In this document: positions 1 to 17,858 of the stretch, piece by piece | Position numbering within the stretch: position 1 is the stretch's first letter | How the letters are laid out: every line of letters begins with the position of its first letter | The notes under the pieces: generated by a model | The model's input: the letters and a program-made list of their open reading frames with translations, nothing else | Told to the model about the DNA's origin: nothing | Database searches by the model: none | Program-made: the position numbers and the translations under genes | From: Candidatus Saccharimonadota bacterium | Lineage (GTDB): Archaea > Micrarchaeota > Micrarchaeia > Micrarchaeales > Micrarchaeaceae | Assembly: GCA_963698035.1 (NCBI GenBank) | Contig: OY969114.1 | Span: 510,001-542,000 of the forward strand | Length of the DNA stretch: 32,000 nt | Direction: 5' to 3'

Positions 1-843
1 AACGATTCGCTGAATCGCCTCTGTGCTACTCCTGAGTTCGAGGACTTTACATACACGCTGGGTTTCTTTGACATCCCAGAAGCAGAGTTAAATGACATCG
101 AGGGACGGAAACAAAATCTTCAGGAAGTCAGAGGTATGTTTAGCAAGCATCACACAATCGAGGAGATAAAATCCGAGATTATCAAATGTTATACCGACCC
201 TAATAACAAGGGAAGCCACAATCAAGCAATATGGACAAGCCTGCCTCTCGATAGCGTAGAAAAGCGCTCGATAGGGGACACTACAACCTACAAGATAAAG
301 ATTGCAGGACGGGAGATGGCGCTTACCAGCATGAAGCTCCTCGATTCAAAGAGTTTCAGGGCAAAGTTTCAAGACTTGTTCGGTGTCCAGCTCCCGTTTT
401 GCAGAACTGAATTATGGTCGATGTTTACCCTTTACATAAATTCGTTAATATGTACCGAAGTAGTCAGAGACACAACAAGCGAGCGGGATATGATCAGAGA
501 GAATGTAAAGAACCACATCGAAGGGAGTATCGCTGTCCCGACCTATGACGAAGCTATGAATTCATGGAACAGCATAAGGATAGGCGAAGGCGACAACCTC
601 TACATCTTTCCTAAGCATCTTTTAGAGGGCATTAAAAATCAGGTGGGACGGGAGATAAACGTGAACAACGTTGTCGATGCTATTGCAGATTGGTACATCA
701 CGTCAACTCCACGCAAGTTAAAGGATAATAAAAAGCAGGTGAGGTTCTGGCGATTAAGGAAGAGCGCCTTTGACCTTTCAGGCATCGCACAGGAAGAGGA
801 TGACCGACAAGGCGCTTTAATCGAGAGTGGCGAGCATGAATAA
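1..843 (+). CDS. Hypothetical element protein, 5'-truncated by window edge
   Basis: Frame 1 is open from nt 1, with no stop before the ATG at 136, so the 235-aa track ORF is probably the C-terminal part of a longer protein. Its stop (841-843) overlaps the helicase ATG at 836 (ATGAATAA coupling). No recognisable motif. Confidence 0.5.
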   Translation, partial: NDSLNRLCATPEFEDFTYTLGFFDIPEAELNDIEGRKQNLQEVRGMFSKHHTIEEIKSEIIKCYTDPNNKGSHNQAIWTSLPLDSVEKRSIGDTTTYKIKIAGREMALTSMKLLDSKSFRAKFQDLFGVQLPFCRTELWSMFTLYINSLICTEVVRDTTSERDMIRENVKNHIEGSIAVPTYDEAMNSWNSIRIGEGDNLYIFPKHLLEGIKNQVGREINVNNVVDAIADWYITSTPRKLKDNKKQVRFWRLRKSAFDLSGIAQEEDDRQGALIESGEHE

Positions 844-2428
844 GACAATAATCTATGGTATTGCTGGGTCGGGTAAGACTGCAAAGATAATAGAGCTTAT
901 CCGTACACGACATCCTGACAGGCTAGGCGAGTGCTGTGTAATCAGCTTCTCAAGGTCGGCTGTACGCAACCTTAGGGAGCGAATAGGGGTAAACAACGCC
1001 AAGGAAGAGTACGACCGCAAGGATTTAGAGGGGTTTAGGACGATTCATAGTATTTGCTCAAGGTTAATGGAGTTGAGCAAAGAAATATTTTTGACAGAGG
1101 GAGACATCGAGAAGTTTATGGAGCAAAAACACATAGATTTCAAACAAGAGGACGAGCTGTACGACGAGCAGAGCGATGGCCAGCGCCTTCTTTCATTAAT
1201 CGACTACATAAGACACACGCAAGTAAAAAGCATAGATAACTTGAGCGCCAGAGACCTGCATCTTCAGATAGGGTACTATCTGGCGCAGTATGGCCACTTC
1301 GACAAAATCATAGCGGACGTTCAGATAATTCGAGACTTGATACAAGCATACGAGGACTATAAGAAAGAAATCGGTAAGCTCGACTATACTGACATCCTGT
1401 TATTGTACCTAAGCAATCCCGTACAAACAGGGTATAAAGTTCTTGTAGTAGACGAGTTTCAAGACATGAGTCCGCTTATCTACAAGATCATAAAAACATT
1501 CGAGCAGGGAGCGGACTACGTTTACTACGCTGGCGACCCGAATCAAGCAATCTATACATGGATGGGAGCTGACCCCCACTTCCTAATAGACGAGATAAAG
1601 GATGCTGACGAAGAGATACTGCTCAATAAGTCGCATAGAGTAGCGGATAAGGTCTATGTTGTCGCAAAGGATACCATAAACAGCAACTCGAGGGACAAGA
1701 TAGATTTTGAAATAGAGTGTGTAAACAAAGGGGATGTAAAAAGGATTTCTGAAGACGATGTGGTCAGCATAGCGAAGACGACAGGCGCTTCAGGGACGAC
1801 CTACATACTGGCTCGTACCAACTGGATGAAGAGACGCATACTAAAGGCGCTTATGCAAGAGGGGGTCGAATTTTCAGAGATAAGCGGAAATAAGGTATGG
1901 ACAATTAAGTTAATCAACATAACCAACGCTCTCTTATCGATAAAGAACGGGACAGCGCTCAAAATCGACTGGCTGAAGGCCTTTATCGATGTAGTACCAT
2001 CAAAACCATACCTGAAGCATGGGGTAAAGAAAAACCTGAAAGAGCAGTTTAAGGATAAGCAGGAAGTCGAAATAAAGGAGCTGTATGGCGCTGTGTTTGA
2101 TGTAAAGCACAACCCTGCGGAGTTCTTGAGCGGACTTGAGACCCTGAAGGTCGATAAAGATAGGGTAAACATTATCCGCAATAAAATCGCCAGAAGCCCG
2201 TCCCTAATCCCAGAGAAGCCACCTATAAGTGTAGGTACAATCCACTCCGCAAAGGGACTGGAAGCGGATAACGTAATTCTGAATCTCAACCTTAGCGCAA
2301 AGATACAGCGAGGGTTAACAAACAAGACCATCAGGGAAGCAGAAGCCAGAATCTTTTACGTTGCGTTTACCCGTTCAAAATCTGATGTATGGGTATATGG
2401 TCATAATCAAATACTCAAAGGTGTTTAG
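836..2428 (+). CDS. Superfamily 1 (UvrD/Rep/PcrA-like) helicase
   Basis: Walker A GIAGSGKT, motif II VVDEFQD, motif III YAGDPNQAIY, motif V ILARTN, and motif VI TIHSAKGLEADNV with FYVAFTRSK. ATG 836 is preferred over the track's GTG 827. Confidence 0.8.
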   Translation: MNKTIIYGIAGSGKTAKIIELIRTRHPDRLGECCVISFSRSAVRNLRERIGVNNAKEEYDRKDLEGFRTIHSICSRLMELSKEIFLTEGDIEKFMEQKHIDFKQEDELYDEQSDGQRLLSLIDYIRHTQVKSIDNLSARDLHLQIGYYLAQYGHFDKIIADVQIIRDLIQAYEDYKKEIGKLDYTDILLLYLSNPVQTGYKVLVVDEFQDMSPLIYKIIKTFEQGADYVYYAGDPNQAIYTWMGADPHFLIDEIKDADEEILLNKSHRVADKVYVVAKDTINSNSRDKIDFEIECVNKGDVKRISEDDVVSIAKTTGASGTTYILARTNWMKRRILKALMQEGVEFSEISGNKVWTIKLINITNALLSIKNGTALKIDWLKAFIDVVPSKPYLKHGVKKNLKEQFKDKQEVEIKELYGAVFDVKHNPAEFLSGLETLKVDKDRVNIIRNKIARSPSLIPEKPPISVGTIHSAKGLEADNVILNLNLSAKIQRGLTNKTIREAEARIFYVAFTRSKSDVWVYGHNQILKGV

Positions 2429-2496
2429 AATATCAATAATCCCTTATATATGGAGAAAATCATACAATCATACTAAAAATAACCATAAGTTCGGTA

Positions 2497-2646
2497 TAAT
2501 ACTACGCCTTACTACATCTCTACTACGCCTTACTTATAGAGGAATAACCTCTATAACTACGCTTACTACATCTACTACTCCCGAAAATCGAGACATGCCT
2601 CAACTTTCCCCATATATAGCGTATTTTGGTGTAGTACGTAGTAGAG
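2497..2646. repeat. Iteron-like direct repeats plus inverted repeats in the element's main intergenic region
   Basis: ACTACGCCTTACTAC occurs at 2501-2515, ACTACGCCTTACTTA at 2522-2536, and ACTACGCTTACTAC at 2556-2569. A perfect 8-bp inverted repeat TATAGAGG/CCTCTATA lies at 2535-2542 and 2548-2555. CTCTACTACG (2518-2527) has an inverted copy CGTAGTAGAG at 2637-2646. Confidence 0.65.
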
Positions 2647-2680
2647 TCTATTTTCATAAAAATTATACCGAGCGGATAGT

Positions 2681-2857
2681 ATGAAAACTCAACAATACCA
2701 AACACAACAAAGAGCGCCATACGGCCGTTGCGTATGCAGTGGTGAGTATAAGCGTGCTGAGGACTGCGACCTAAGAGAGCCAGATTACTTCGTGGTCGGA
2801 GACATCATCAAGCCATCAACGATTATCTGTTCGAAATGCTGGAGAGTACGGAGATGA
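2681..2857 (+). CDS. Small Cys-rich (CxC...CxxC) zinc-ribbon-like protein, 58 aa; below the ORF-track cutoff
   Basis: Manual translation gives MKTQQYQTQQRAPYGRCVCSGEYKRAEDCDLREPDYFVVGDIIKPSTIICSKCWRVRR. An A/T-rich box (ATAAAAATTATA, 2657-2668) lies about 15-25 nt upstream. The stop is 4 nt before the next ATG at 2862. Confidence 0.35.
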   Translation: MKTQQYQTQQRAPYGRCVCSGEYKRAEDCDLREPDYFVVGDIIKPSTIICSKCWRVRR

Positions 2858-2861
2858 TACT

Positions 2862-3083
2862 ATGAAATGTAGCGTATGCGGAGAGGTTCTTGGAAAGTGT
2901 GATAGATGTGGCCTGAACTTCAGGCTCAATCAAGTGGTCTATTGCAGGCCGTATACTTTTGGGTATCAATCTGCAAAGCTCCACTACTGCGAAGACCGAA
3001 TCGCAGGTCATCCGCTTGATGCTGAAAGAGGGAAGGCTCTCGGCAAAGACCATGAAAAACTTATGATAAGGGAGATAAAATGA
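2862..3083 (+). CDS. Small zinc-ribbon protein
   Basis: The N-terminus CSVCGEVLGKCDRCG has CxxC...CxxC spacing. The stop overlaps the next start (ATGA at 3080). Confidence 0.45.
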   Translation: MKCSVCGEVLGKCDRCGLNFRLNQVVYCRPYTFGYQSAKLHYCEDRIAGHPLDAERGKALGKDHEKLMIREIK

Positions 3084-3466
3084 CGAAAACAAATCGAGAA
3101 GGGATCATAATCTTCGCATCCAGCCTCAAGGAGCTGGGATACGATTGCGGTAATCTACTTGAGATCGCATACGAACTCAGGAAGCATGACGAAGCTCACC
3201 GGTCTAACTTAACCGGTATGCTCTACGACTGGCTTCATAGGTATTACTGGACAGCGCTCCAGGCTCAAGAACGTGCTGTATCACAAGAGCTTCATGGTAA
3301 GGCTTCTGATGTAGCACGTGCTACACATCCATCGAGAGAAAATGTAGCACAAAACCTTCAGAACGACGAGCCGAAAGATACCTCTTCCTCTAAATACAAT
3401 ATTACAAGTGAATCCGATAATAACGAAAATGTGATACAGGGCAGGCCTGCATCACAAGAGGGATAG
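3080..3466 (+). CDS. Hypothetical protein
   Basis: ORF with start/stop coupling to both neighbours. No motif recognised. Confidence 0.45.
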   Translation: MTKTNREGIIIFASSLKELGYDCGNLLEIAYELRKHDEAHRSNLTGMLYDWLHRYYWTALQAQERAVSQELHGKASDVARATHPSRENVAQNLQNDEPKDTSSSKYNITSESDNNENVIQGRPASQEG

Positions 3467-3467
3467 T

Positions 3468-3701
3468 ATGACGAACCATGCGCACAGATACCTTTACAAT
3501 ATCCATGTAAACATTCAACGGGGCTGGTCTCAATACTCGCTTTACTTTTATGTAAGCGGTATCTCAGCAATCATCGGCGGTTTCTTTAAGCTGGCCGGCA
3601 TCGGAGCTTTCATATTTACGCTGGCCTTCTTTTACCTGGCTGGAAGGATGCATAAGCGAATAAACAACGTGATGGTAAATGAAACAACGCAAGAAGCATA
3701 A
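3468..3701 (+). CDS. Small membrane protein (two hydrophobic segments)
   Basis: Hydrophobic stretches ISAIIGGFFKLAGIGAFIFTLAFFYLAG. The ORF is adjacent to the previous stop. Confidence 0.4.
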   Translation: MTNHAHRYLYNIHVNIQRGWSQYSLYFYVSGISAIIGGFFKLAGIGAFIFTLAFFYLAGRMHKRINNVMVNETTQEA

Positions 3702-3975
3702 GATAGTAGTCCATGAGAGTCGTACACATGGAGAGATAATAGAGCGCAAGTGGTATGCGGAGCTGTACGACATCCTGAAGCAATCCTTTAAAGCAAAGGC
3801 AGAGGTCGAGGTATGGATCGATAGTGATATGGTAAAGGGTAAGGTTAAAGGTTTCGGGAAAGCTTGGGTATCTATGGAGACCGATGACGCTGTGATCTTT
3901 ATACCTCAGGCTGATATTAAGCGTTTGCAAGTCCGTACAGAAGAGAAGCGAACAGGAATGAATTATGTTAGGTAA
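3679..3975 (+). CDS. Hypothetical protein
   Basis: ORF in the operon context, overlapping both neighbours by a few codons. Confidence 0.4.
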   Translation: MKQRKKHKIVVHESRTHGEIIERKWYAELYDILKQSFKAKAEVEVWIDSDMVKGKVKGFGKAWVSMETDDAVIFIPQADIKRLQVRTEEKRTGMNYVR

Positions 3976-4423
3976 TCGTATGGATATACAACAAGAGCAA
4001 GACCAAGAACGCAGGTCGTATATACGTTCAAGAGTATACGGCCTGAGACTTGATGAACCTTTATTTGAGCTTTTGACTGCTTGCAGGCTTAAGGGGATGA
4101 ACGCCAGAGCCTTTAATGATCAGATGAAGCGCTGTATGTGGGGATATCTGAATGACTTTAGGAAGGTTAAACGTTTACGGCAATTACCTTCTCTCGAATC
4201 GCTGATGAGCGATAGTGTTAATACAGATGCGGACAAGGGTGATAGGATACCTTTTGCACTAAAACAGGTATCTTCAGATGATAATAGTAGATTCATTCAA
4301 ATTCAAACCAAAGGATACCTTAATTTACCACAAGGACAGGTAAACACAGCATCGGAAGGACAATCAGAGCCAGATAGCGAGCAGGAAGAGGATACCGGTG
4401 AGCCTGATGAGGCTGAGGGATGA
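3965..4423 (+). CDS. Hypothetical protein with possible RHH-like N-terminal region and acidic tail
   Basis: The strand-helix-helix-like pattern RVYGLRLDEPLFELLTACRLKGMNARAFNDQMKRCMW is only weak support. The C-terminus is acidic (SEPDSEQEEDTGEPDEAEG). The stop overlaps the next start. Confidence 0.4.
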   Translation: MLGNRMDIQQEQDQERRSYIRSRVYGLRLDEPLFELLTACRLKGMNARAFNDQMKRCMWGYLNDFRKVKRLRQLPSLESLMSDSVNTDADKGDRIPFALKQVSSDDNSRFIQIQTKGYLNLPQGQVNTASEGQSEPDSEQEEDTGEPDEAEG

Positions 4424-4758
4424 GTATGCTGGACGAGACGTTTAACTTTACGATTGATTCGAAGCTCAAGAAGAGATATCAGATCCTCAGGGCCAGCTAT
4501 GACATCGCTCCAGGCATCATGGCTAAGAGATTGAGGGAGTGCTTCGAAGCTGTGCTTACCGAATTGGAAGGCTCTGTAAAGAAGCCTAAGGACTCCGCTA
4601 AGCCAGAGATATCATCTGCGATCCCTTCACCAATCGAGATACCTAAAGGGTTGGATGTTAAATCTCTGGAATCATCTATCACTATCAATTATGTTCCTTC
4701 TCCAGAGATCGCTCCTGCGGAAAGTCCGCAAAGTCCAAAGGCGGATAGAGGATGGTGA
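4420..4758 (+). CDS. Hypothetical protein, possible RHH-like DNA-binding fold
   Basis: The pattern FNFTIDSKLKKRYQILRASYDIAPGIMAKRLRECFEAVL resembles beta-alpha-alpha. The ORF overlaps the integrase start. Confidence 0.4.
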   Translation: MSMLDETFNFTIDSKLKKRYQILRASYDIAPGIMAKRLRECFEAVLTELEGSVKKPKDSAKPEISSAIPSPIEIPKGLDVKSLESSITINYVPSPEIAPAESPQSPKADRGW

Positions 4759-5378
4759 TGATGGACAACCTTCCAGCAATAGCAAAGAGCAAAGCAATAC
4801 GGCGCTGGGATAGAGCGAAAGCTCCTAAGTATCTCAGGCCAGATGAGATCAAAGCCATCCTCACCTTTGAATACAACAAGAGAAGGAAGGATGAGAAGCT
4901 CAGCCGTAATCTGAACAAGTATTACGTTCTCTTCTCTCTGCTATGGAATACTGGCGCTCGCATCAGCGAAGCCCTGTCCCTTATCGCTGATGATGTGAAG
5001 CCAGATCACCAGGTCTATTTCAGGACTCTGAAGAGAAGGATGGACGCAAGCAGGTATATACCTATAAGCGACTCGATGTATTCCGACCTTACCAGGTACA
5101 TGAACGAGAGCGCCATGAAAGGATCTGATAGGCTCTTCGATTTGAGCAAGGTCGCTGTCCATAAGGAACTCAAGAACGTATGCCGGCAAGTAGGCCTTCC
5201 TTCCTGGATTCATGTCCATACCTTCAGGCATAGCTTCGCTGTGAACTGCCTATCGAATAACGTTCATATCAATACGCTCAAGGAGATACTGGGACATGGA
5301 AGCGTTGAGAACACTATGATATACCTGAAGGTCTTCCAGCCAGAGATACGAGACCAGCTATCCAAAGTCCCGTTCTAA
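4752..5378 (+). CDS. Tyrosine recombinase / integrase (short, catalytic domain only)
   Basis: Catalytic signature: NTGARISEAL (Arg), HTFRHSFA (His-x-x-Arg), LGHGSVENTMIYLKV (His and Tyr nucleophile). At 208 aa it has no separate N-terminal core-binding domain. Confidence 0.85.
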   Translation: MVMMDNLPAIAKSKAIRRWDRAKAPKYLRPDEIKAILTFEYNKRRKDEKLSRNLNKYYVLFSLLWNTGARISEALSLIADDVKPDHQVYFRTLKRRMDASRYIPISDSMYSDLTRYMNESAMKGSDRLFDLSKVAVHKELKNVCRQVGLPSWIHVHTFRHSFAVNCLSNNVHINTLKEILGHGSVENTMIYLKVFQPEIRDQLSKVPF

Positions 5379-5511
5379 AGCAACGTAATCAAAGGTATGA
5401 ATCATTAACTTCCTGGCCTGTTTGGAAGCCGGTCTTAGAGAGCTGGCCTGTCCAGGCTCAGTAGAAAGAAGTAAATCCTTTCCTAACATAAAAGATTAAC
5501 AAGGTATCTTT

Positions 5512-5823
5512 ATGAGACTGATAAAGAAGATAATGATCCTCACTCCGCAACAGGTCGCATGGCTGGAAGAGTATCGTAAACAAGGATGGTCTATGTCGCT
5601 GAAGATCAGGAAGCTCCTGGATAAAGCCATGAAACAGGAAGGCCACGAACTTGAGAAGCCGGCAAAGATCCAAGAGCCAGCCATGACAAAGGAAGAGAAA
5701 GAGAAGTATGAACAATATGCGGACGCATACGAAGTTCTTAAGGCGCATGAGAGCGAGCTGAAAGAACCTTACCTGTCGGTTGTCCAGGCAATCGACAAGG
5801 AGCTGGCCGAGATAGAGGAGTAG
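5512..5823 (+). CDS. Putative RHH/CopG-like regulator
   Basis: IMILTPQQVAWLEEYRKQGWSMSLKIRKLLDKAM fits a strand-helix-helix pattern. An A/T-rich box (ACATAAAAGATTAA, 5487-5500) lies about 12-25 nt upstream of the ATG. Confidence 0.45.
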   Translation: MRLIKKIMILTPQQVAWLEEYRKQGWSMSLKIRKLLDKAMKQEGHELEKPAKIQEPAMTKEEKEKYEQYADAYEVLKAHESELKEPYLSVVQAIDKELAEIEE

Positions 5824-6085
5824 TCGCTACAAGACAGCGTATAATGTGCGTGTAGTAAGGCGATGTCGATGCGCTCCGATAAAGATACTCGGAAAAGAAT
5901 CTCTTCGCTAAACGCATCCTATCGCACGTAATAAAGAATGTCGTCGAACGGATAAGAGAGGTATGCTAATAGGTTTATTTATAGCTGTGTAGTTTGGGGG
6001 TACAACCTTCCGTAATCCTCTGCTTCGGGCGTTCGCTCCCCAGCAAATATTTAAAATTCTGGAATCATTAATTTTATTTTCCTTG

Positions 6086-6733
6086 CTAGCATTCGCTAAG
6101 CAACTTTATTACTTCAGAATCCTCCAACTGTTCAAAACTTTCATAAAACTGCCCTATCGCATAGAAAAAAGAAGGACAGCCCAAGTAAATTACCTCATTC
6201 ACCTCCGTTTTAAGAATATTAAGGACTTCTGGATGTATAACAGGTGCCGCAATTATTATCTTTCCTGCCTTCTGGCTTTTTAACCACCTTGCAGCAACAA
6301 CCATGCTGGCGCCAGTAGCAACCCCGTCGTCCACTAATATAACGGTTCTATCTTTTATTCTAGGATAAGCCCTTTTTCCTCTATATTCTGTGAAGCGCCT
6401 TAATGATTCAGACCTCTGCCTTTTCTCCTCCTTCTCTATATAACGGCTTGGAATAGAATTCATAGCTATTACCTCTTCGTTTATGAAAATACTGCCGTCA
6501 TGCATTACAGCACCGATGGCCAATTCAGGATTGTAAGGGTCGCGAAGCTTTCTCGGCGTTATTATATCCAATTCTAACTTGAGCTTCTTGGCAATCTCGC
6601 ATCCTAACACCACTCCTCCTCTTGGTATGGCAAGTACAAGAGCACCCTTTAGCTTGAGAGATTTGAGCCTCTCAGCCAGCAGTAATCCCGCCTCTTTTCT
6701 GTCCTTAAAACAAAGTGGTTCCGATTTGGCCAT
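6086..6733 (-). CDS. Predicted phosphoribosyltransferase (type I PRTase fold, COG1926-like)
   Basis: PRPP-binding loop VILVDDGVATGASM and N-terminal LAIPRGGVVLG. The C-terminal motif FYAIGQFYESFEQLEDSEV is typical of this uncharacterised PRTase family. Confidence 0.8.
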   Translation of the reverse strand: MAKSEPLCFKDRKEAGLLLAERLKSLKLKGALVLAIPRGGVVLGCEIAKKLKLELDIITPRKLRDPYNPELAIGAVMHDGSIFINEEVIAMNSIPSRYIEKEEKRQRSESLRRFTEYRGKRAYPRIKDRTVILVDDGVATGASMVVAARWLKSQKAGKIIIAAPVIHPEVLNILKTEVNEVIYLGCPSFFYAIGQFYESFEQLEDSEVIKLLSEC

Positions 6734-6863
6734 GCAGCACCTTAAATATTATAAAGGCGTTTCTAATATATACGCCCTTAAACCAAACCTTAACTATCGC
6801 CTCCATGAAGCCCCATAGCATTATTATAATTTAGCCGCAAGTATGCTTTAATAGGTGTTAAAC

Positions 6864-7130
6864 ATGAAGACACTAAAAACAATAATCGGGGGAGTAATAG
6901 GGGGCGTTGTGATAACGCTCGCAACCGCGGTCTATAATACGACACCGGCCGGTCTTGTAGGCGCAACCTGGTACGGATTCCCGCTCAGCTGGCTGATCAA
7001 GCGCGTAGTCGCACCGCAGTACAATCCATGGGCACTAAGCTATACCGGCCTGGTCATAGACCTTGTTGTCTGGTTTATTGTTATGTTCATAATACTGCTG
7101 CTTGTCGGCATGACCATGAAGAGGAAGTGA
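6864..7130 (+). CDS. Small integral membrane protein
   Basis: Two or three hydrophobic helices (IIGGVIGGVVITLATAV; LVIDLVVWFIVMFIILLLVG). ATG 6864 is preferred over GTG 6855. Confidence 0.5.
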   Translation: MKTLKTIIGGVIGGVVITLATAVYNTTPAGLVGATWYGFPLSWLIKRVVAPQYNPWALSYTGLVIDLVVWFIVMFIILLLVGMTMKRK

Positions 7131-9002: not shown

Positions 9003-9077
9003 GGGTCTGTAACTCAGTTTGGCTAGAGTGGCAGGCTTTTAACCTGTAAGTCGGGGGTTCAAATCCCCCCAGACCCG
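9003..9077 (+). tRNA. tRNA-Lys (anticodon UUU), no intron, CCA not encoded
   Basis: Manual cloverleaf: acceptor GGGTCTG/CAGACCC, D stem ACTC/GAGT, anticodon stem GCAGG/CCTGT with loop CTTTTAA, T arm GGGGG-TTCAAAT-CCCCC, discriminator G. Confidence 0.85.
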
Positions 9078-12886: not shown

Positions 12887-12923
12887 TTCCTTTTGTGCAC
12901 ATAATTGGAAAACAAAAGTTTTC

Positions 12924-14411
12924 CGAGGTGATCTATCCGCAGGTTCCCCTACGGATACCTTGTTATGCCTTAGCCCTCCTCACAGAACCTTAACTCGAAA
13001 GCATCCGAAAGATGCTGCCTCACTAGGGCCCCACTTGGGTGACTTGGCAGGCGGTGTGTGCAAGGAGCTGGGACATATTCACCGCTCGATAGTGACAAGC
13101 GATTACTAGGGATTCCAGCTTCATGAGGGCGAGTTTCAGCCCTCAATCCGAACTTGGGTTGGTTTTAGGGGATTGGCTTCCCCTTTCGGTGTTGCATCCC
13201 ATTGTGCCAACCTTTGTATGCCGCGTGTAGCCCTGGAGATTCAGAGCATACTGACGTACCGTTGCCCTCTCCTTCCTCCTCTTTAAACAGAGGCGGTCCC
13301 GACAGAGTGCCTGATTCATCGCTGAACCAGTGGCAACTGTCAATGAGGGTCTCGCTCGTTACCGGACTTAACCGGACAGTTCACACCACGAGCTGACGAT
13401 CGCCATGCACTACCTCTCGGCTCGTCAGGTAAGATCTTTAGTCTGGCCTTCACACTGCCGTCGCTCCAGGTAATATTTCCGACGTTGAATTCAATTAAAC
13501 CGCAGCATCCACCCCTTGTGTGCTCCCCCGCCAATTGCTTTAAGTTTCAACCTTGCGGCCGTACTCCCCAGGCGGCAGACTTAACAGTTTCCTACGGTAC
13601 TGCAAACATTCGAGATATTTGCAACACCAGAGTCTGCATAATTTACTGCTAGGGCTACTCGGGTATCTAATCCGATTCGTTCTCCTAGCCTTCGCTCCTC
13701 ACTGTCGGATGCGTTCTGGTCAGGCGCCTTCGCCACCGTTAGTCCTTATAGGATTATAGGATTTTACCCCTTCCCCATAAGTACTCCTGACCTCACCCGC
13801 TCCCTAGCCGATAGGTATCTCATGCACGCATTGATGTTGAGCACCAATATTTCACACAAGACGGTTTCGGCCAGCTACGAGCGCTTTAAGCCCAATAATC
13901 GTGGACACCACTTGTGCTGCCGGTATTACCGTGGCGGCTGCCACCGGTCTTGCCCAGCACTTATTCGCCAAGCTTGCTATACTTGGCAAAAGGTTCACCG
14001 AAGTGAACCACTCAGATTCCCCCCATCACGCTTCCGCGCATTGTGGAGTTTGCGCGCCTGCTGCACGCCGTAGCGCTAGGGCCCTTGTCTCAGTGCCCTT
14101 CTCGGGGCTCTATACTCTCATATCCCCTACGGGTTATAGGTATGGTGGGCCGTTACCCCGCCATCTGCCTGATCCGCCGCAGTCTCATCGTAAAGCGGTA
14201 ATGCTCCAATTCGTCACCTTTTGAGCTACTGACTCCTTCCAGGTGTCCATAGCCTATGGCGTATTAGCCTCAGTTTCCCGAGGGTATCCGCCTCTTTACG
14301 GTAGATTGACCACGTGTTACTGAGCCGTACGCCGCCCAACGAAGTCGTTGAGCTGACTTGCATGGCTGTCGAAATCTGATAGCAGTGTCCTCCAGCAGCA
14401 TCGACTGGAGT
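12924..14411 (-). rRNA. 16S (SSU) rRNA, archaeal, about 1.49 kb, no linked tRNA-Ala or 23S in the window
   Basis: The 3' end reads ...AAGGTATCCGTAGGGGAACCTGCGGATAGATCACCTCGG on the minus strand. The 5' end reads ACTCCAGTCGATGCTGCTGGAGGACACTGCTATCAG. Conserved blocks such as GTGGCAGCCGCCACGGTAATAC (530 loop) are present. End coordinates are accurate to a few nt. Confidence 0.9.
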
Positions 14412-14688: not shown

Positions 14689-14721
14689 TCCATGCTCCGT
14701 TCATTCTAGCAGTTGATTCTG

Positions 14722-16986
14722 ATGGGCCCTAGGCATAGGCGTAGCACTGCCGGGCAGCAGTCAGCAATAGAATTGCTCAGCACATATGCGTGGGCATTCA
14801 TAATAGTGGCACTGCTCGTTGTAGCGATAGGGATTTACTTAGGAATTGCACCCAGTTCGCAGCTTGTATCCTCTCAGTGCAACATACAGCCACTGCTCCC
14901 ATGCCCGCAGACCCTCCTAGCGCACACCGCAGTGGCTACGCAGGCGGTCTACAAGATGCTGATGGTAAATAATCTTGCGCCTTATCTCTACTTCGCACCA
15001 AACACATTTGTCGTTACTGTGACAAATGCAGGCGTAACATCTGGCAACTATACAGGCAGCTGCACACCCTATCTCACGGCGAAGGGCGATGAGGTGATAT
15101 GCCAGGCGAACCTGTCGACATCCAACTTGCCATCTTTGGGCACATCCGCCAACATAAACTTCAAGGTGCAGTACCAGATATGCAGCACTGCAAATGTGAT
15201 GCAGTGCCCAAGCGTGATATACACGACAACGGGATACTCGCTGCAGGCGGTTACACTGTCGCCGCCCAGTCTATACACTCTTACGCTCGCTTCATCCCCG
15301 AATACTACGCTTGTGATAGGGCAGCAGAGATACTCTGCAGGGAGTACGATATACCTACCGCTGGGAAGATACACCCTCTTCGCGATAACGCCCGCAGGCT
15401 ACATCTTCAGTTCCTGGACCTCTAGCGGGGGAGCTTCAGCCCTATCTTCAACAGCACAGAACACCACCCTCACACTTTCATCAAACGGAATGATTAGCGC
15501 AACATTCTATGTGCAGACAATCAGCACCACAATCTCCACTACAATCTCCACCACCCTCGGCTCCTCCATCTCTACCTCAATCTCCACATCCATCTCCTCA
15601 ACATCCATCTCCTCCACTTCCATCTCTTCCACCTCCATCTCCACTTCAATCTCCTCAACATCCATCTCCTCCACTTCCATCTCTTCCACCTCCGTCACTT
15701 CCATCTCTTCCACTTCCATCTCCTCCACCACCCTAAAATCCTCCTCCACCACCCTAAAATCCTCCACTTCAATCTCCACCTCCATCTCCTCAACATCCAT
15801 CTCCTCCACTTCCATCTCTTCCACCTCCATCTCCACTTCAATCTCCTCAACATCCATCTCCTCCACTTCCATCTCTTCCACCTCCGTCACTTCCATCTCT
15901 TCCACTTCCATCTCCTCCACCACCCTAAAATCCTCCTCCACCACCCTAAAATCCTCCACTTCAATCTCCACCTCCATCTCCTCAACATCCATCTCCTCCA
16001 CTTCCATCTCTTCCACCTCCATCTCCACTTCAATCTCCTCAACATCCATCTCCTCCACTTCCATCTCTTCCACCTCCGTCACTTCCATCTCTTCCACTTC
16101 CATCTCCTCCACCACCCTAAAATCCTCCTCCACCACCCTAAAATCCTCCACTTCAATCTCCACCTCCATCTCCTCAACATCCATCTCCTCCACTTCCATC
16201 TCTTCCACCTCCATCTCCACTTCAATCTCCTCAACATCCATCTCCTCCACTTCCATCTCTTCCACCTCCGTCACTTCCATCTCTTCCACTTCCATCTCCT
16301 CCACTACCACCTATCAAACAACCTCAATTTCGAGTATATGTGCCTGCGGCGGTCTGTACCTTCTCTGCAGCGTGGCACAATGCTCTGGCTGCCCCGCCTC
16401 GTGCCCATCCACGGATATTGGAAATCCACAGCCCCAATGTCCCACCCTAGATGAGTGGGGTTGCGTATGCACTGGCGGTGGCTGTAGCTCTGGCTCCACC
16501 ACCGTAACCGTGACAATATTCACCACAATAATAACATACACCGTTACCACCATCAACACCGCCAGCTCATCGTTCCTGGGATCCACACTAGTGCTCATGG
16601 CCGACGGCTCCTATCAGCAAATCGCCACTATAGAACCCGGTGATATTGTGATGTCTTATGACCCGGCAAATCACAAAATGTATCCAAACGTTGTTTTAGC
16701 CGTTCCTGTATTCGAGATAGGCGGCACCTATACAATAAACAACAATGTAACGACGGACGGGTTTGAGGCATTCTATGTCCTGCGCAATGGAACTTACACA
16801 TGGGTGCACACTTCGAACCTGACAGTGGGAGACCAGATATACGACCCATTAACCGGCTCTTCCCTGAGGGTTAACAGCATAAAGATTAAGAATCTCGGTT
16901 GCATATGCGGACGGGTCTATGACATAATCGGGGCATCCGGTAATAATTTCATAGTGAAGGGTGGGTATCTAGCCGATAAATTGTAA
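14722..16986 (+). CDS. Surface protein: class III (archaeal type IV pilin-like) signal peptide + globular domain + S/T/I tandem-repeat stalk + Cys-rich segment + C-terminal Hint domain
   Basis: N-terminus MGPRHRRSTAGQQSAIELLSTYAWAFIIVALLVVAIGIYLGI. One frame stays open through the repeats. The C-terminal 137 aa carry Hint block A (FLGSTLVLMADGSYQQIATIEPGDIVMSYD) and block F/G-like VYDIIGASGNNFIVKGG. ATG 14722 is preferred over the track's TTG 14713. Confidence 0.75.
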   Translation: MGPRHRRSTAGQQSAIELLSTYAWAFIIVALLVVAIGIYLGIAPSSQLVSSQCNIQPLLPCPQTLLAHTAVATQAVYKMLMVNNLAPYLYFAPNTFVVTVTNAGVTSGNYTGSCTPYLTAKGDEVICQANLSTSNLPSLGTSANINFKVQYQICSTANVMQCPSVIYTTTGYSLQAVTLSPPSLYTLTLASSPNTTLVIGQQRYSAGSTIYLPLGRYTLFAITPAGYIFSSWTSSGGASALSSTAQNTTLTLSSNGMISATFYVQTISTTISTTISTTLGSSISTSISTSISSTSISSTSISSTSISTSISSTSISSTSISSTSVTSISSTSISSTTLKSSSTTLKSSTSISTSISSTSISSTSISSTSISTSISSTSISSTSISSTSVTSISSTSISSTTLKSSSTTLKSSTSISTSISSTSISSTSISSTSISTSISSTSISSTSISSTSVTSISSTSISSTTLKSSSTTLKSSTSISTSISSTSISSTSISSTSISTSISSTSISSTSISSTSVTSISSTSISSTTTYQTTSISSICACGGLYLLCSVAQCSGCPASCPSTDIGNPQPQCPTLDEWGCVCTGGGCSSGSTTVTVTIFTTIITYTVTTINTASSSFLGSTLVLMADGSYQQIATIEPGDIVMSYDPANHKMYPNVVLAVPVFEIGGTYTINNNVTTDGFEAFYVLRNGTYTWVHTSNLTVGDQIYDPLTGSSLRVNSIKIKNLGCICGRVYDIIGASGNNFIVKGGYLADKL
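15570..16305 (+). repeat. Tandem repeat, 192-bp unit x about 3.8, near-identical copies, in-frame coding (64-aa S/T/I unit ending TTLKSSSTTLKSS)
   Basis: The marker ACCCTAAAATCC recurs at 15730, 15922 and 16114, exactly 192 nt apart. By eye the flanking sequence matches base for base. The unit is built from a 15-nt S-T-S-I-S sub-repeat. Confidence 0.9.
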
Positions 16987-17009: not shown

Positions 17010-17858
17010 ATGGAACAGGGCAATGAAGCAGCAAATGAGAATTACAATACACAAAAGGTCCCGGATACGAAGACATCTCAGGGTCCTGTTGCCCTGCTGG
17101 GCCCCCCCGCAGCCACGAAACCACTAAAGACGTATGCCGCCGCCATAGTCATAGTTGTTGTAATGTTGGCAATCGTATTTACCGCAATATCTCTAAATTT
17201 CATACATTTAACTACATCTACAACCTCTACAACCTCCGCACCACCCCCCGCAAGCACAACCATCTACAGCAACCCAAACTACACCGCGCATATCAACAGA
17301 ATACAAAGTTTCCTTAACACCGCATCGCTTCCGGTAGGCCCAACCTATTATGTTCTCAACCCCTACCTGCAGCCAATCCCAGAATGCAACTTTAGCGGAT
17401 GGGAAAAATGGTACATAGAAAATGGATTCTCGGACAACTCGGCATTGTACCAGAACTACTCAAAACTTAACCAGAGCATCCCATTTGCATGGGAGGTCAT
17501 AATCGGGTTTTCTAATACGACAAAAGCCTACAACGCTACGATAAACGGAAATGGTGGGTACTGCTCAAGCATTATACATAATGTGACCCTCTTATCATCT
17601 TTTACATCTTCTAAACAGAGGTTCTATAACAACGCAACGGGTTACCTTGTCACGTTCACAAACTTCACCAGTGCTGGGTTGAACCTGACAAACAGCTACT
17701 ACATAGGACCAAAGCCTAATCTTGAATGGTCCTTTTCTATGGTAAACTACAATGGCATATGGATACGTGTGGCTGCATGGGGATTCTACAACGAAATAAA
17801 CGAATCGCAGCTCATAAACTGGACAAACATAACTGCAATGCTTTATAGCACCTCATAA
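17010..17858 (+). CDS. Membrane-anchored extracellular protein, Thr-rich linker, dense N-glycosylation sequons
   Basis: A single TM (AAAIVIVVVMLAIVFTAISLNFI) follows a roughly 40-aa cytoplasmic head. A TTSTTSTTSAPPPASTT linker and about 13 N-x-S/T sequons follow. No homolog recognised. Confidence 0.6.
   Translation: MEQGNEAANENYNTQKVPDTKTSQGPVALLGPPAATKPLKTYAAAIVIVVVMLAIVFTAISLNFIHLTTSTTSTTSAPPPASTTIYSNPNYTAHINRIQSFLNTASLPVGPTYYVLNPYLQPIPECNFSGWEKWYIENGFSDNSALYQNYSKLNQSIPFAWEVIIGFSNTTKAYNATINGNGGYCSSIIHNVTLLSSFTSSKQRFYNNATGYLVTFTNFTSAGLNLTNSYYIGPKPNLEWSFSMVNYNGIWIRVAAWGFYNEINESQLINWTNITAMLYSTS

Follow-up and report, generated by a model that had tools for sequence, protein, structure and literature searches.

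A Hint domain lacking the block-B histidine at the C-terminus of a probable pilin-like surface protein of Micrarchaeota

In a 32,000-nucleotide stretch of a genome placed by GTDB in the archaeal family Micrarchaeaceae (GenBank assembly GCA_963698035.1, contig OY969114.1, positions 510,001 to 542,000 of the forward strand; hereafter the window), we found a gene for a modular surface protein that ends in a genuine Hint domain with an unusual active site, in which Asp and Glu take the positions of the block-B Thr and His. The gene is a single uninterrupted frame of 754 codons on the plus strand (ATG at 14722, stop at 16984-16986, with an alternative TTG start at 14713, three codons upstream of the ATG). 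An initial annotation, made from the bare sequence, had described four parts, namely a pilin-type signal, a mucin-like repeat region, a Cys-rich segment, and a terminal Hint domain, and all four lie in this one frame, with the coordinates confirmed for each residue. We propose that the product is a type-IV-pilin-like modular adhesin whose Hint domain cleaves itself off at Ser616/Ser617, a proposal that we regard as evenly poised between right and wrong.

Identity of the C-terminal domain

Taken alone, the window Hint remains below threshold for all Pfam families: its best single-sequence match, PT-HINT (PF07591), has an E-value of 6e-4 and 15.5-20.6 bits as against a gathering cut-off of 27.7, with further sub-threshold matches to Hom_end_hint and Hint, and one weak match in the PDB. 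The Pfam searches suggested by the initial annotation thus point to the Hint families without passing their thresholds for the window protein alone, and the Class_IIIsignal model that it named for the N-terminus does not match. A scan of genome contigs with the single protein gave no match, a word-indexed protein search returned three Hint relatives, all truncated, and a metagenome scan contributed just two further close relatives, both on short contigs. With an exhaustive HMMER search covering 1.84 billion representative proteins, we recovered 365 relatives at E<=1e-3, 45 of them at E<=1e-10.

A family profile made from the 30-35 closest of these domains was searched against the PDB and retrieved the bacterial intein-like domain (BIL) 2 of the Tetrahymena BUBL protein (E=2.3e-13), the Clostridium thermocellum BIL 2LWY (E=2.2e-9), the 1368-amino-acid (aa) 'intein C-terminal splicing domain-containing protein' 8W20 (E=5e-7), and true inteins (E=1.7e-6 and 6.5e-6), along with a marginal match to Hedgehog (E about 0.2). 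An AlphaFold2 (AF2) model of the domain based on a 35-sequence alignment reached a predicted local distance difference test score (pLDDT) of 92.6 and a predicted template modelling score of 0.86, while a model from three sequences had a pLDDT of 60. Foldseek searches with the former placed BIL2 (template modelling (TM) score 0.81-0.84, E about 3e-9) and 2LWY (TM score 0.82/0.85, root-mean-square deviation 2.2 Å) ahead of dozens of inteins, Hedgehog (1AT0/6TYY, TM score about 0.7), and Vint. There were 66 PDB matches at E<=1e-3, and the best 50 of these 66 are all BILs, inteins, Hedgehog, or Vint. The terminal Hint domain of the initial annotation is thus upheld by profile E-values down to 2.3e-13 and TM scores up to 0.84-0.85, and the structure prediction and fold comparison that it called for yielded a model superposing on BIL, intein, and Hedgehog structures. 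The profile matches and the AF2/Foldseek placement together make the assignment secure: the C-terminal domain has a genuine Hint fold.

Two functional contexts of this fold can be set aside for the window gene. The first is the PT-HINT of polymorphic toxins, which would release a C-terminal toxin. PT-HINT is the best Pfam match of the window domain (20.6 bits) and is matched at E<=0.01 by 15 of 30 clade members (others match Hint, Intein_splicing, Hom_end_hint, or Vint), and 8W20 is among the PDB matches. Against this, the scores lie under the Pfam cut-off, no immunity-like gene is adjacent, and, where PT-HINT precedes a toxin domain, just two residues follow the domain in the window protein and 0-11 in all clade members. 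We therefore consider this reading very improbable, and for the window gene toxin release is ruled out by the stop codon at 16984. The second is a true (mini-)intein or its remnant. The Hint fold, the similarity in blocks A and F, and the presence of inteins among the fold matches speak for it; however, there is no C-extein, no Cys, Ser, or Thr at +1, no terminal His-Asn, and no endonuclease, and instead of interrupting a conserved host protein the domain has been kept as a C-terminal module across divergent proteins. The departures from a splicing intein listed in the initial annotation all hold: nothing but K753-L754 follows the domain, position 1 is Ser, and both the block-B His and the terminal His-Asn are absent. 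With only Lys-Leu after the Hint, splicing is impossible, and the lack of a C-extein, of His-Asn, and of an insertion in a host protein refutes an intein at the sequence level, leaving this the least credible of the alternatives.

A histidine-free active site in the Asp..Glu clade

We aligned 80 near-full-length Hint domains from the HMMER matches. The window domain belongs to a distinct clade, examined in 35 aligned sequences, which we term the Asp..Glu clade after its block B. Position 1 of the clade is invariably a nucleophile (Ser in 24, Cys in four, and Thr in one of 29 sequences, never Ala or Gly), whereas the preceding -1 position accepts ten residue types, mostly small. The block-B Thr position is Asp in 34/35 and the block-B His position Glu in 34/35, an equivalence (D with T, E with H) that is also seen in the alignment to 2LWY; the block-F Asp is likewise retained in 34/35. 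At the block-F His position the clade has Asn or Asp, as do about half of the canonical relatives. These remote canonical relatives feature Cys1, a block-B T-x-x-H-P-F, and a terminal V-H-N, and they are often found as head-to-tail arrays. The clade itself ends in G-Y-L-x-D-(K) with 0-11 residues before the stop, and the domain is the last one in every member. In the window protein, which ends in YLADKL, K753-L754 alone come after Asp752, which aligns with the penultimate His or, via a one-residue gap, with the terminal Asn of intein block G.

The block-B Thr-x-x-His of all described Hint families is thus lacking in the window domain. The His, which the initial annotation had noted as seemingly absent, is indeed gone; it is not simply missing, however, having been replaced, together with the Thr, by the conserved Glu682 and Asp679. 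In inteins, Thr-B:7, His-B:10, and Asp-F:4 surround the N-terminal scissile bond, and His-B:10 has been called 'the most conserved intein residue'; just two inteins were known to lack it at the time, and one of these is a pseudogene (PMC4031507). A clade that keeps the nucleophile while bearing Asp/Glu at block B is therefore unusual. The cleavage site also needs to be moved from that first proposed: rather than at a Ser-Phe junction, the scissile bond by Hint convention would be Ser616-Ser617, with the nucleophile Ser617 as the first Hint residue.

Other, smaller C-terminal Hint clades among the relatives also lack the histidine, with block B reading T..Q, S..Q, or D..Q (P0073, P0103, P0115, P0123, P0130, P0152, and P0157; P0047, P0049, and P0080). 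Their proteins show ordinary-looking signal peptides and end in GVLVGDKP or similar; the VLVGDK of the T..Q clade aligns without gaps to the intein-type LVHNK. Several canonical relatives (P0028, P0043, P0089, P0097, P0135) are head-to-tail BIL-like arrays of the form VHNK-GGG-CF, with Lys and not a nucleophile at +1, and a Lys after the terminal Asn/Asp is also common in the histidine-free clades (DK). The window Hint has in addition a Cys-x-Cys pair (GCICG; 16900-16908, residues 727-729) in the loop before block F, which is absent in its relatives.

Self-cleavage, transfer or docking

We envisage the following course of events. After export and what would be prepilin-type processing, the hydrophobic N-terminal helix would anchor the protein either in the membrane or in a fibre resembling a pilus. 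The head, a Ser/Thr stalk of about 270 aa, which is probably glycosylated, and the disulfide knot would extend outwards with the Hint at the far end. An N-to-O acyl shift would then follow, in which Ser617 attacks the peptide bond that links it to Ser616; the block-F Asp734 would help in this, as would Glu682 and Asp679, which stand where block B usually has His and Thr. Hydrolysis of the resulting ester would release the Hint and mature the stalk tip; alternatively, the ester might be passed to an outside nucleophile, in the manner of Hedgehog (cholesterol) or Tetrahymena BIL2 (lysine). Judging from the pattern of residues, we would put active self-cleavage at roughly an even prospect, and transfer to an acceptor as rather improbable. 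The always-terminal position of the Hint gives a Hedgehog/Hog-like layout of cargo plus C-terminal Hint, as expected for a leaving group.

Several observations weigh against this proposal. A clade without the block-B and penultimate His could be inactive, and its Asp/Glu/Asp cluster could just as well bind Ca2+ in a domain whose role is purely structural. Moreover, tandem double Hints of the Asp..Glu clade are found in eight relatives (P0010, P0011, P0013, P0016, P0017, P0018, P0020, and P0024), the second of them ending in GYLIT, and P0018 also has a class III-type start. Such double-Hint relatives are hard to explain by simple self-release, and neither an active nor a dead domain accounts for them.

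These points lead to the most serious alternative, in which the terminal Hint no longer has any catalytic activity. Such a 'pseudo-Hint' would persist on the stalk tip of an uncleaved protein as a compact beta-domain for binding or docking, its target being Ca2+, a ligand on the host cell, or the two partner membrane proteins. It would account for the loss of the block-B and penultimate catalytic His and of the terminal Asn, given that His-B:10 is normally indispensable (PMC4031507), as well as for conserved acidic residues that could chelate a metal; the tandem pairs and the two membrane proteins always encoded beside the gene are also in its favor. In contrast, a dead domain would not be expected to restrict position 1 to Ser, Cys, or Thr in 29/29 sequences while -1 varies freely, nor to place its replacements exactly at the catalytic B:7, B:10, and F-Asp positions with 97% conservation, nor to stay at the extreme C-terminus, as a leaving group would. 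While we see the pseudo-Hint as possible, though on the unlikely side, the residue conservation suggests retained chemistry over a degenerate docking module.

A more specific version of the self-cleavage proposal draws on the sedolisins, in which Glu replaces the His of the Ser-His-Asp triad and which are active at low pH. By analogy, the Asp..Glu clade might present a histidine-free 'serine-carboxyl' Hint site (Ser/Glu/Asp) that transfers the ester-activated stalk tip to an acceptor of the host or of its own envelope. The acceptor may be a lipid, glycan, or lysine on a host cell, or else the symbiont's own envelope or partner proteins. We consider this version distinctly unlikely. As a matter of speculation, a sedolisin-like site would fit the acidic extracellular habitat of many Micrarchaeota, archaea of which many inhabit acidic sites (PMC6627985).

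Comparison with known Hint systems and modular pilins

Among the closest known systems are the bacterial intein-like domains, above all those of type B (Amitai et al. 2003). The C. thermocellum BIL 2LWY is among the best matches of the window Hint by both sequence profile and fold. The window Hint resembles such BILs further in being a mini Hint (about 138 aa) that belongs to a secreted, variable protein, in having a nucleophile at its N-terminus, and in lacking both a +1 nucleophile and a block G like that of inteins. Type B BILs, which are without block G similarity, cleave without splicing (PMC4031507). The differences lie in block B, where BILs retain Thr..His (TFDH in 2LWY) and the window clade has Asp..Glu, and in the setting, in that the window Hint is archaeal, always very C-terminal, and on a probable class-III-signal carrier. 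BIL2 of Tetrahymena BUBL (6TMM/6Y75), the top match by both profile and fold, forms an isopeptide between a Lys epsilon-amino group and the C-terminus of the upstream domain, without ATP (PMC8616854). Its use of Cys1, His69, and a terminal His-Asn, its regulation by zinc, and its place between ubiquitin-like domains inside a eukaryotic cell set it apart from the window Hint, which is His-less, terminal, and extracellular.

Hedgehog and Hog proteins (1AT0, 6TYY) resemble the window protein in having a secreted N-terminal cargo followed by a C-terminal Hint, with a junction of small residue, nucleophile, and Phe (here and below an arrow marks a junction), which reads GC↓F in Hedgehog and SS↓SF in the window. 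Hedgehog transfers its cargo to cholesterol; the window protein has no sterol- or adduct-recognition region, its chain ending two residues after the Hint, and its block-B Thr/His are replaced. By analogy with these systems, the window Hint would most likely act in the manner of a type B BIL or a Hog-type C-terminal autoprocessing domain.

As for the carrier, modular type IV pilins, such as PilB/PilC of Streptococcus sanguinis, and class-III-signal proteins that are not pilins, such as the sugar-binding proteins of Sulfolobus (PMC3387779), show a pilin-type helix that carries grafted modules, much as the Micrarchaeota N-domain carries many different C-terminal modules. We know of no described modular pilin or class-III-signal protein with a Hint domain.

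A probable pilin-like carrier

The N-terminus (residues 1-42) reads MGPRHRRSTAGQ↓QSAIELLSTYAWAFIIVALLVVAIGIYLGI and has the layout of a class III-type signal: the leader MGPRHRRSTAGQ is followed by QSAIE17 and a hydrophobic run from LLSTYAW to AIGIY, with Glu17 at +5. The conserved Q-[SA]-A-x-E start falls at Q13 in all homologs of our alignment A5, in which Q13, A15, E17, T21, Y22, W24, and A25 are invariant. When GTDB species genomes were scanned with the pattern Q[SA]A[VIL]E[FL].. and the N-domain (the first 263 residues), 121 relatives were recovered. The close ones are all in metagenome-assembled genomes (MAGs) of Candidatus Micrarchaeota, of the DPANN archaea, in line with the host-dependent archaeon suspected in the initial annotation; remoter relatives come from Woesearchaeota, Nanoarchaeota (also DPANN), and MAGs labelled Methanosarcinales. 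In Micrarchaeota, the N-domain homologs are mostly complete stand-alone proteins of 257-266 aa that start KG↓QAALEF, KD↓QAAVEF, or KQ↓QSAVEF, one of them two genes away from a Peptidase_A24 (prepilin-peptidase family) gene. Where the N-domain does not occur alone, a Ser/Thr linker connects it to very different modules, such as beta-propeller-like repeats or Gly-rich modules. A Hint was absent from all 80 genome loci to which the N-domain led, so the Hint fusion is rare though the N-domain is common. Within the head, Flg_new_2 scores 29.8 bits against a Pfam cut-off of 23.6.

There are, however, points that tell against a pilin-type signal. Archaeal prepilin peptidases prefer a cleavage site that has K/R in position -2 and G/A in position -1 (PMC3387779), and the window leader has A-G↓Q-Q or G-Q↓Q-S, with Ala or Gly and not K/R at -2. 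The Pfam PF04021 Class_IIIsignal and NCBIfam archaellin and pilin models do not match the window protein (the best E-value for the family is 7.1), no gene for a prepilin peptidase, pilus ATPase, or platform protein lies within the 32-kb window, and the N-domain profile returned no pilin from the PDB and hence no detectable solved relative. All four are what would be expected if the N-terminus were an uncleaved signal-anchor or an ordinary Sec signal, and the protein an adhesin unrelated to the type IV pilus machinery. This alternative concerns no part but the N-terminus and would agree with an active as well as with a dead Hint. It does not readily explain the invariant Q..A.E, with its Glu at +5, right where the hydrophobic helix begins, the K/R-[GA] immediately before this motif in most family members (KRG↓Q in L146, in full KRG↓QSAVE, KG↓Q in P0006, KA↓Q in P0022, and RA↓Q in P0018 and P0029), the Peptidase_A24 gene near a paralog, or the spread of the family with the same N-terminal signature through DPANN and the MAGs labelled Methanosarcinales. 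We accordingly hold it to be unlikely. The motif, the Glu at +5, and the family context suggest a class III signal, and we consider a pilin-like carrier probable; of the pilin-type signal first described, the motif, the helix, and the family support it, while a match to a curated model and a K/R at -2 in the window are wanting.

Stalk, Cys-rich knot and integrity of the frame

The repeat region, initially put at about 250 aa, covers residues 264-537, where 139 of 274 residues are Ser, 68 Thr, and 45 Ile. Its DNA consists of a 192-bp unit in 3.8 copies with 99% matches (nt 15570-16308, Tandem Repeats Finder (TRF) score 1450). The Cys-rich segment that follows, first described as about 50 aa with 10 Cys, has 51 residues (538-588) and exactly 10 Cys. 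Similar modules of the form CxCGG..C..QC.GCP.SCP are present in L004, L007, P0005, P0009, P0014, and P0022. Among Micrarchaeota pilin-like proteins, the Cys-rich knot and a Gly-rich, possibly beta-helix-like module occur as shuffled cassettes, with or without a Hint (L007, 737-2749; P0005; P0009).

The copy number of the 192-bp repeat is not fixed by the window sequence alone, and this counts against taking the gene at face value. It could in principle be an artefact of assembly or frame, a chimera created where the repeat was collapsed or expanded, as the 99% identity over 739 bp, the breaks of short-read contigs in the repeat, and the fragmentary public gene calls might suggest. Yet the unit amounts to 64 codons, so that errors in copy number cannot break the frame; the short-read contigs that stop inside the stalk repeat (L001-L004) nevertheless read Ser/Thr in the frame of the Hint; L146 and L089 have head, stalk, knot, and Hint in a single frame; and P0029 joins signal, head, and Hint without any repeat. 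We therefore see next to no likelihood of an artefact. A 95%-identical fragment (P0004) shares the start ATG of the 754-aa gene.

The public gene calls are truncated, to 111 aa (P0001) as against 754 aa and to 504 aa (P0009/P0158) as against roughly 880 aa, because antisense open reading frames (ORFs) are called over the Ser/Thr repeats, as seen in the window, L001, and L089. We considered the antisense ORF of 267 aa in the window as a possible real gene and rejected it as a product of the repeat. As gene callers split such genes at the Ser/Thr repeats, the architecture is hidden in public protein databases.

Recurrence of the architecture and its partner genes

The same architecture is found on independent contigs of related genomes, which the initial annotation had proposed to survey. 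In L146, it is a called gene of 849 aa with the start KRG↓QSAVELLSTYAWAF, the same head, a Ser/Thr linker, a Gly-rich module, a second Ser/Thr linker, the Cys-rich knot, and the Hint (AAS↓FVGSTQVLMADG, with TDGFEVFY further on and GGYLADKLPA at its end). In L089, the equivalent gene is a stop-to-stop frame of 903 codons with the leader from about codon 27. Both occupy the same syntenic site as the window gene, between rpS13/S4/S11 and an Endo_dU/RpoL/rpS5 cluster. More widely, in six complete proteins a start of the form K/R-[GA]↓QSA[IML]E goes together with a terminal Hint of the clade (P0015, P0018, P0021, P0022, P0029, P0031); their middles are unrelated, and P0029 has signal, head, and Hint with no repeat. 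One cluster includes MDE1873950.1, entered at NCBI as 'hypothetical protein [Candidatus Micrarchaeota archaeon]'.

Two genes for proteins with N-terminal transmembrane (TM) helices follow the Hint gene in the window (Table 1). A homolog of the first comes directly after the Hint gene in L001, L003, L004, L089, and L146, and its six detected homologs are unannotated. The second is syntenic in L001, L089 (28% identity, E=3e-14), and L146, with an 86-aa homologous fragment in L003. The first has no Pfam match, and neither has a family assignment. These small, membrane-anchored proteins, rich in N-glycosylation sequons, may be partners or acceptors of the Hint protein.

In L089/L090 (JGI 3300033990 Ga0373184_0002051), the module of the pilin-Hint gene with genes for 277-aa and 180-aa proteins is tandemly duplicated with a period of about 4.2 kb. 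After the duplication comes a 666-aa paralog in which the same pilin-like head is fused to beta-propeller-like 'GCSIY.GYIYCVG' repeats.

Genomic neighborhood

A complete archaeal 16S rRNA gene in divergent orientation lies 300 bp from the start codon of the 754-aa gene, with rpS13/S4/S11 upstream of it; no 23S or 5S rRNA gene was detected in the window. Downstream of the Hint gene are an Endo_dU gene and a run of minus-strand ORFs, which in L001, whose Hint gene is identical, are called as RpoL, Csl4, and the ribosomal proteins S5, L18, L19e, L32e, L6, and S8. A tRNA-Lys gene lies at 9003-9077. Positions 1-7000 of the window have a GC content of 0.42-0.46 compared to about 0.52 elsewhere and hold a phage-integrase-family gene (4752-5378), a UvrD-like helicase gene (827-2428), and several ORFs without a family; this region may be an integrated mobile element.

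Table 1. Features of the Hint gene and its surroundings, in window positions
Feature	Positions	Strand	Basis or remark
Whole gene, 754-aa modular surface protein plus stop	14722-16986	+	single ORF; homologs at both ends
Basic leader MGPRHRRSTAGQ, residues 1-12	14722-14757	+	putative prepilin-peptidase site before Q13 or Q12
QSAIE motif and hydrophobic helix of about 25 aa, residues 13-42	14758-14847	+	alignment A5 of homologs
Globular pilin-like head, residues 43-263, 6 conserved Cys	14848-15510	+	stand-alone homologs
InlB-type B-repeat (Pfam Flg_new_2), residues 185-262, last third of head	15274-15507	+	Pfam
Ser/Thr/Ile-rich 'mucin-like' stalk, residues 264-537	15511-16332	+	TRF, composition
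Cys-rich knot, residues 538-588, 10 Cys	16333-16485	+	residue count
Thr-rich linker, residues 589-616, ending TASS-S616	16486-16569	+	direct reading
Hint domain, residues 617-754, BIL-like, Asp..Glu clade	16570-16983	+	profile, AF2, Foldseek, conservation
Ser617, putative catalytic position	16570-16572
Asp679, putative catalytic position	16756-16758
Glu682, putative catalytic position	16765-16767
Asp734, putative catalytic position	16921-16923
Asp752-Lys753, putative catalytic position	16975-16980
Downstream partner 1, 282 aa: N-terminal TM helix, short Ser/Thr linker, sequon-rich ectodomain	17010-17858	+
Downstream partner 2, 186 aa: N-terminal TM helix	17891-18451	+
Spurious antisense ORF, 267 aa, 'EEMEVEE...'	15507-16310	-	by-product of stalk repeat, not a gene
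16S rRNA gene, archaeal, complete	12923-14411	-

Implications

A search of 8 million full texts found none in which Hint domains are linked to class III signals, to type IV pilins, or to DPANN, and the censuses of archaeal type IV filaments that we checked make no mention of Hint domains or inteins. A pilin-like surface protein with a C-terminal Hint thus does not seem to have been described before, which agrees with the initial annotation, whose author knew of no described archaeal protein of this kind. The fold is known and the chemistry is probably known as well, while the configuration of the catalytic residues and the carrier architecture are probably new. The case also exposes a blind spot of annotation, in that genes with Ser/Thr repeats are split by gene callers.

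For the biochemistry of Hint domains and inteins, an active Asp..Glu clade would, if true, provide a natural and conserved active site without the 'most conserved' block-B His, and such a domain might serve as a self-cleaving tag that tolerates acid and needs no thiols. For archaeal cell biology, it would mean that self-processing chemistry has been added to type-IV-pilin-like carriers, and through the Hint the cell may be able to cleave the tip of a surface stalk or to attach it covalently. With regard to host attachment in DPANN, the gene is a surface candidate whose genomic site and two partner genes are conserved along with it. If the transfer reading were true, it would constitute an enzyme-free covalent tether for a DPANN episymbiont, a prokaryotic counterpart of Hedgehog cholesteroylation and BUBL conjugation.

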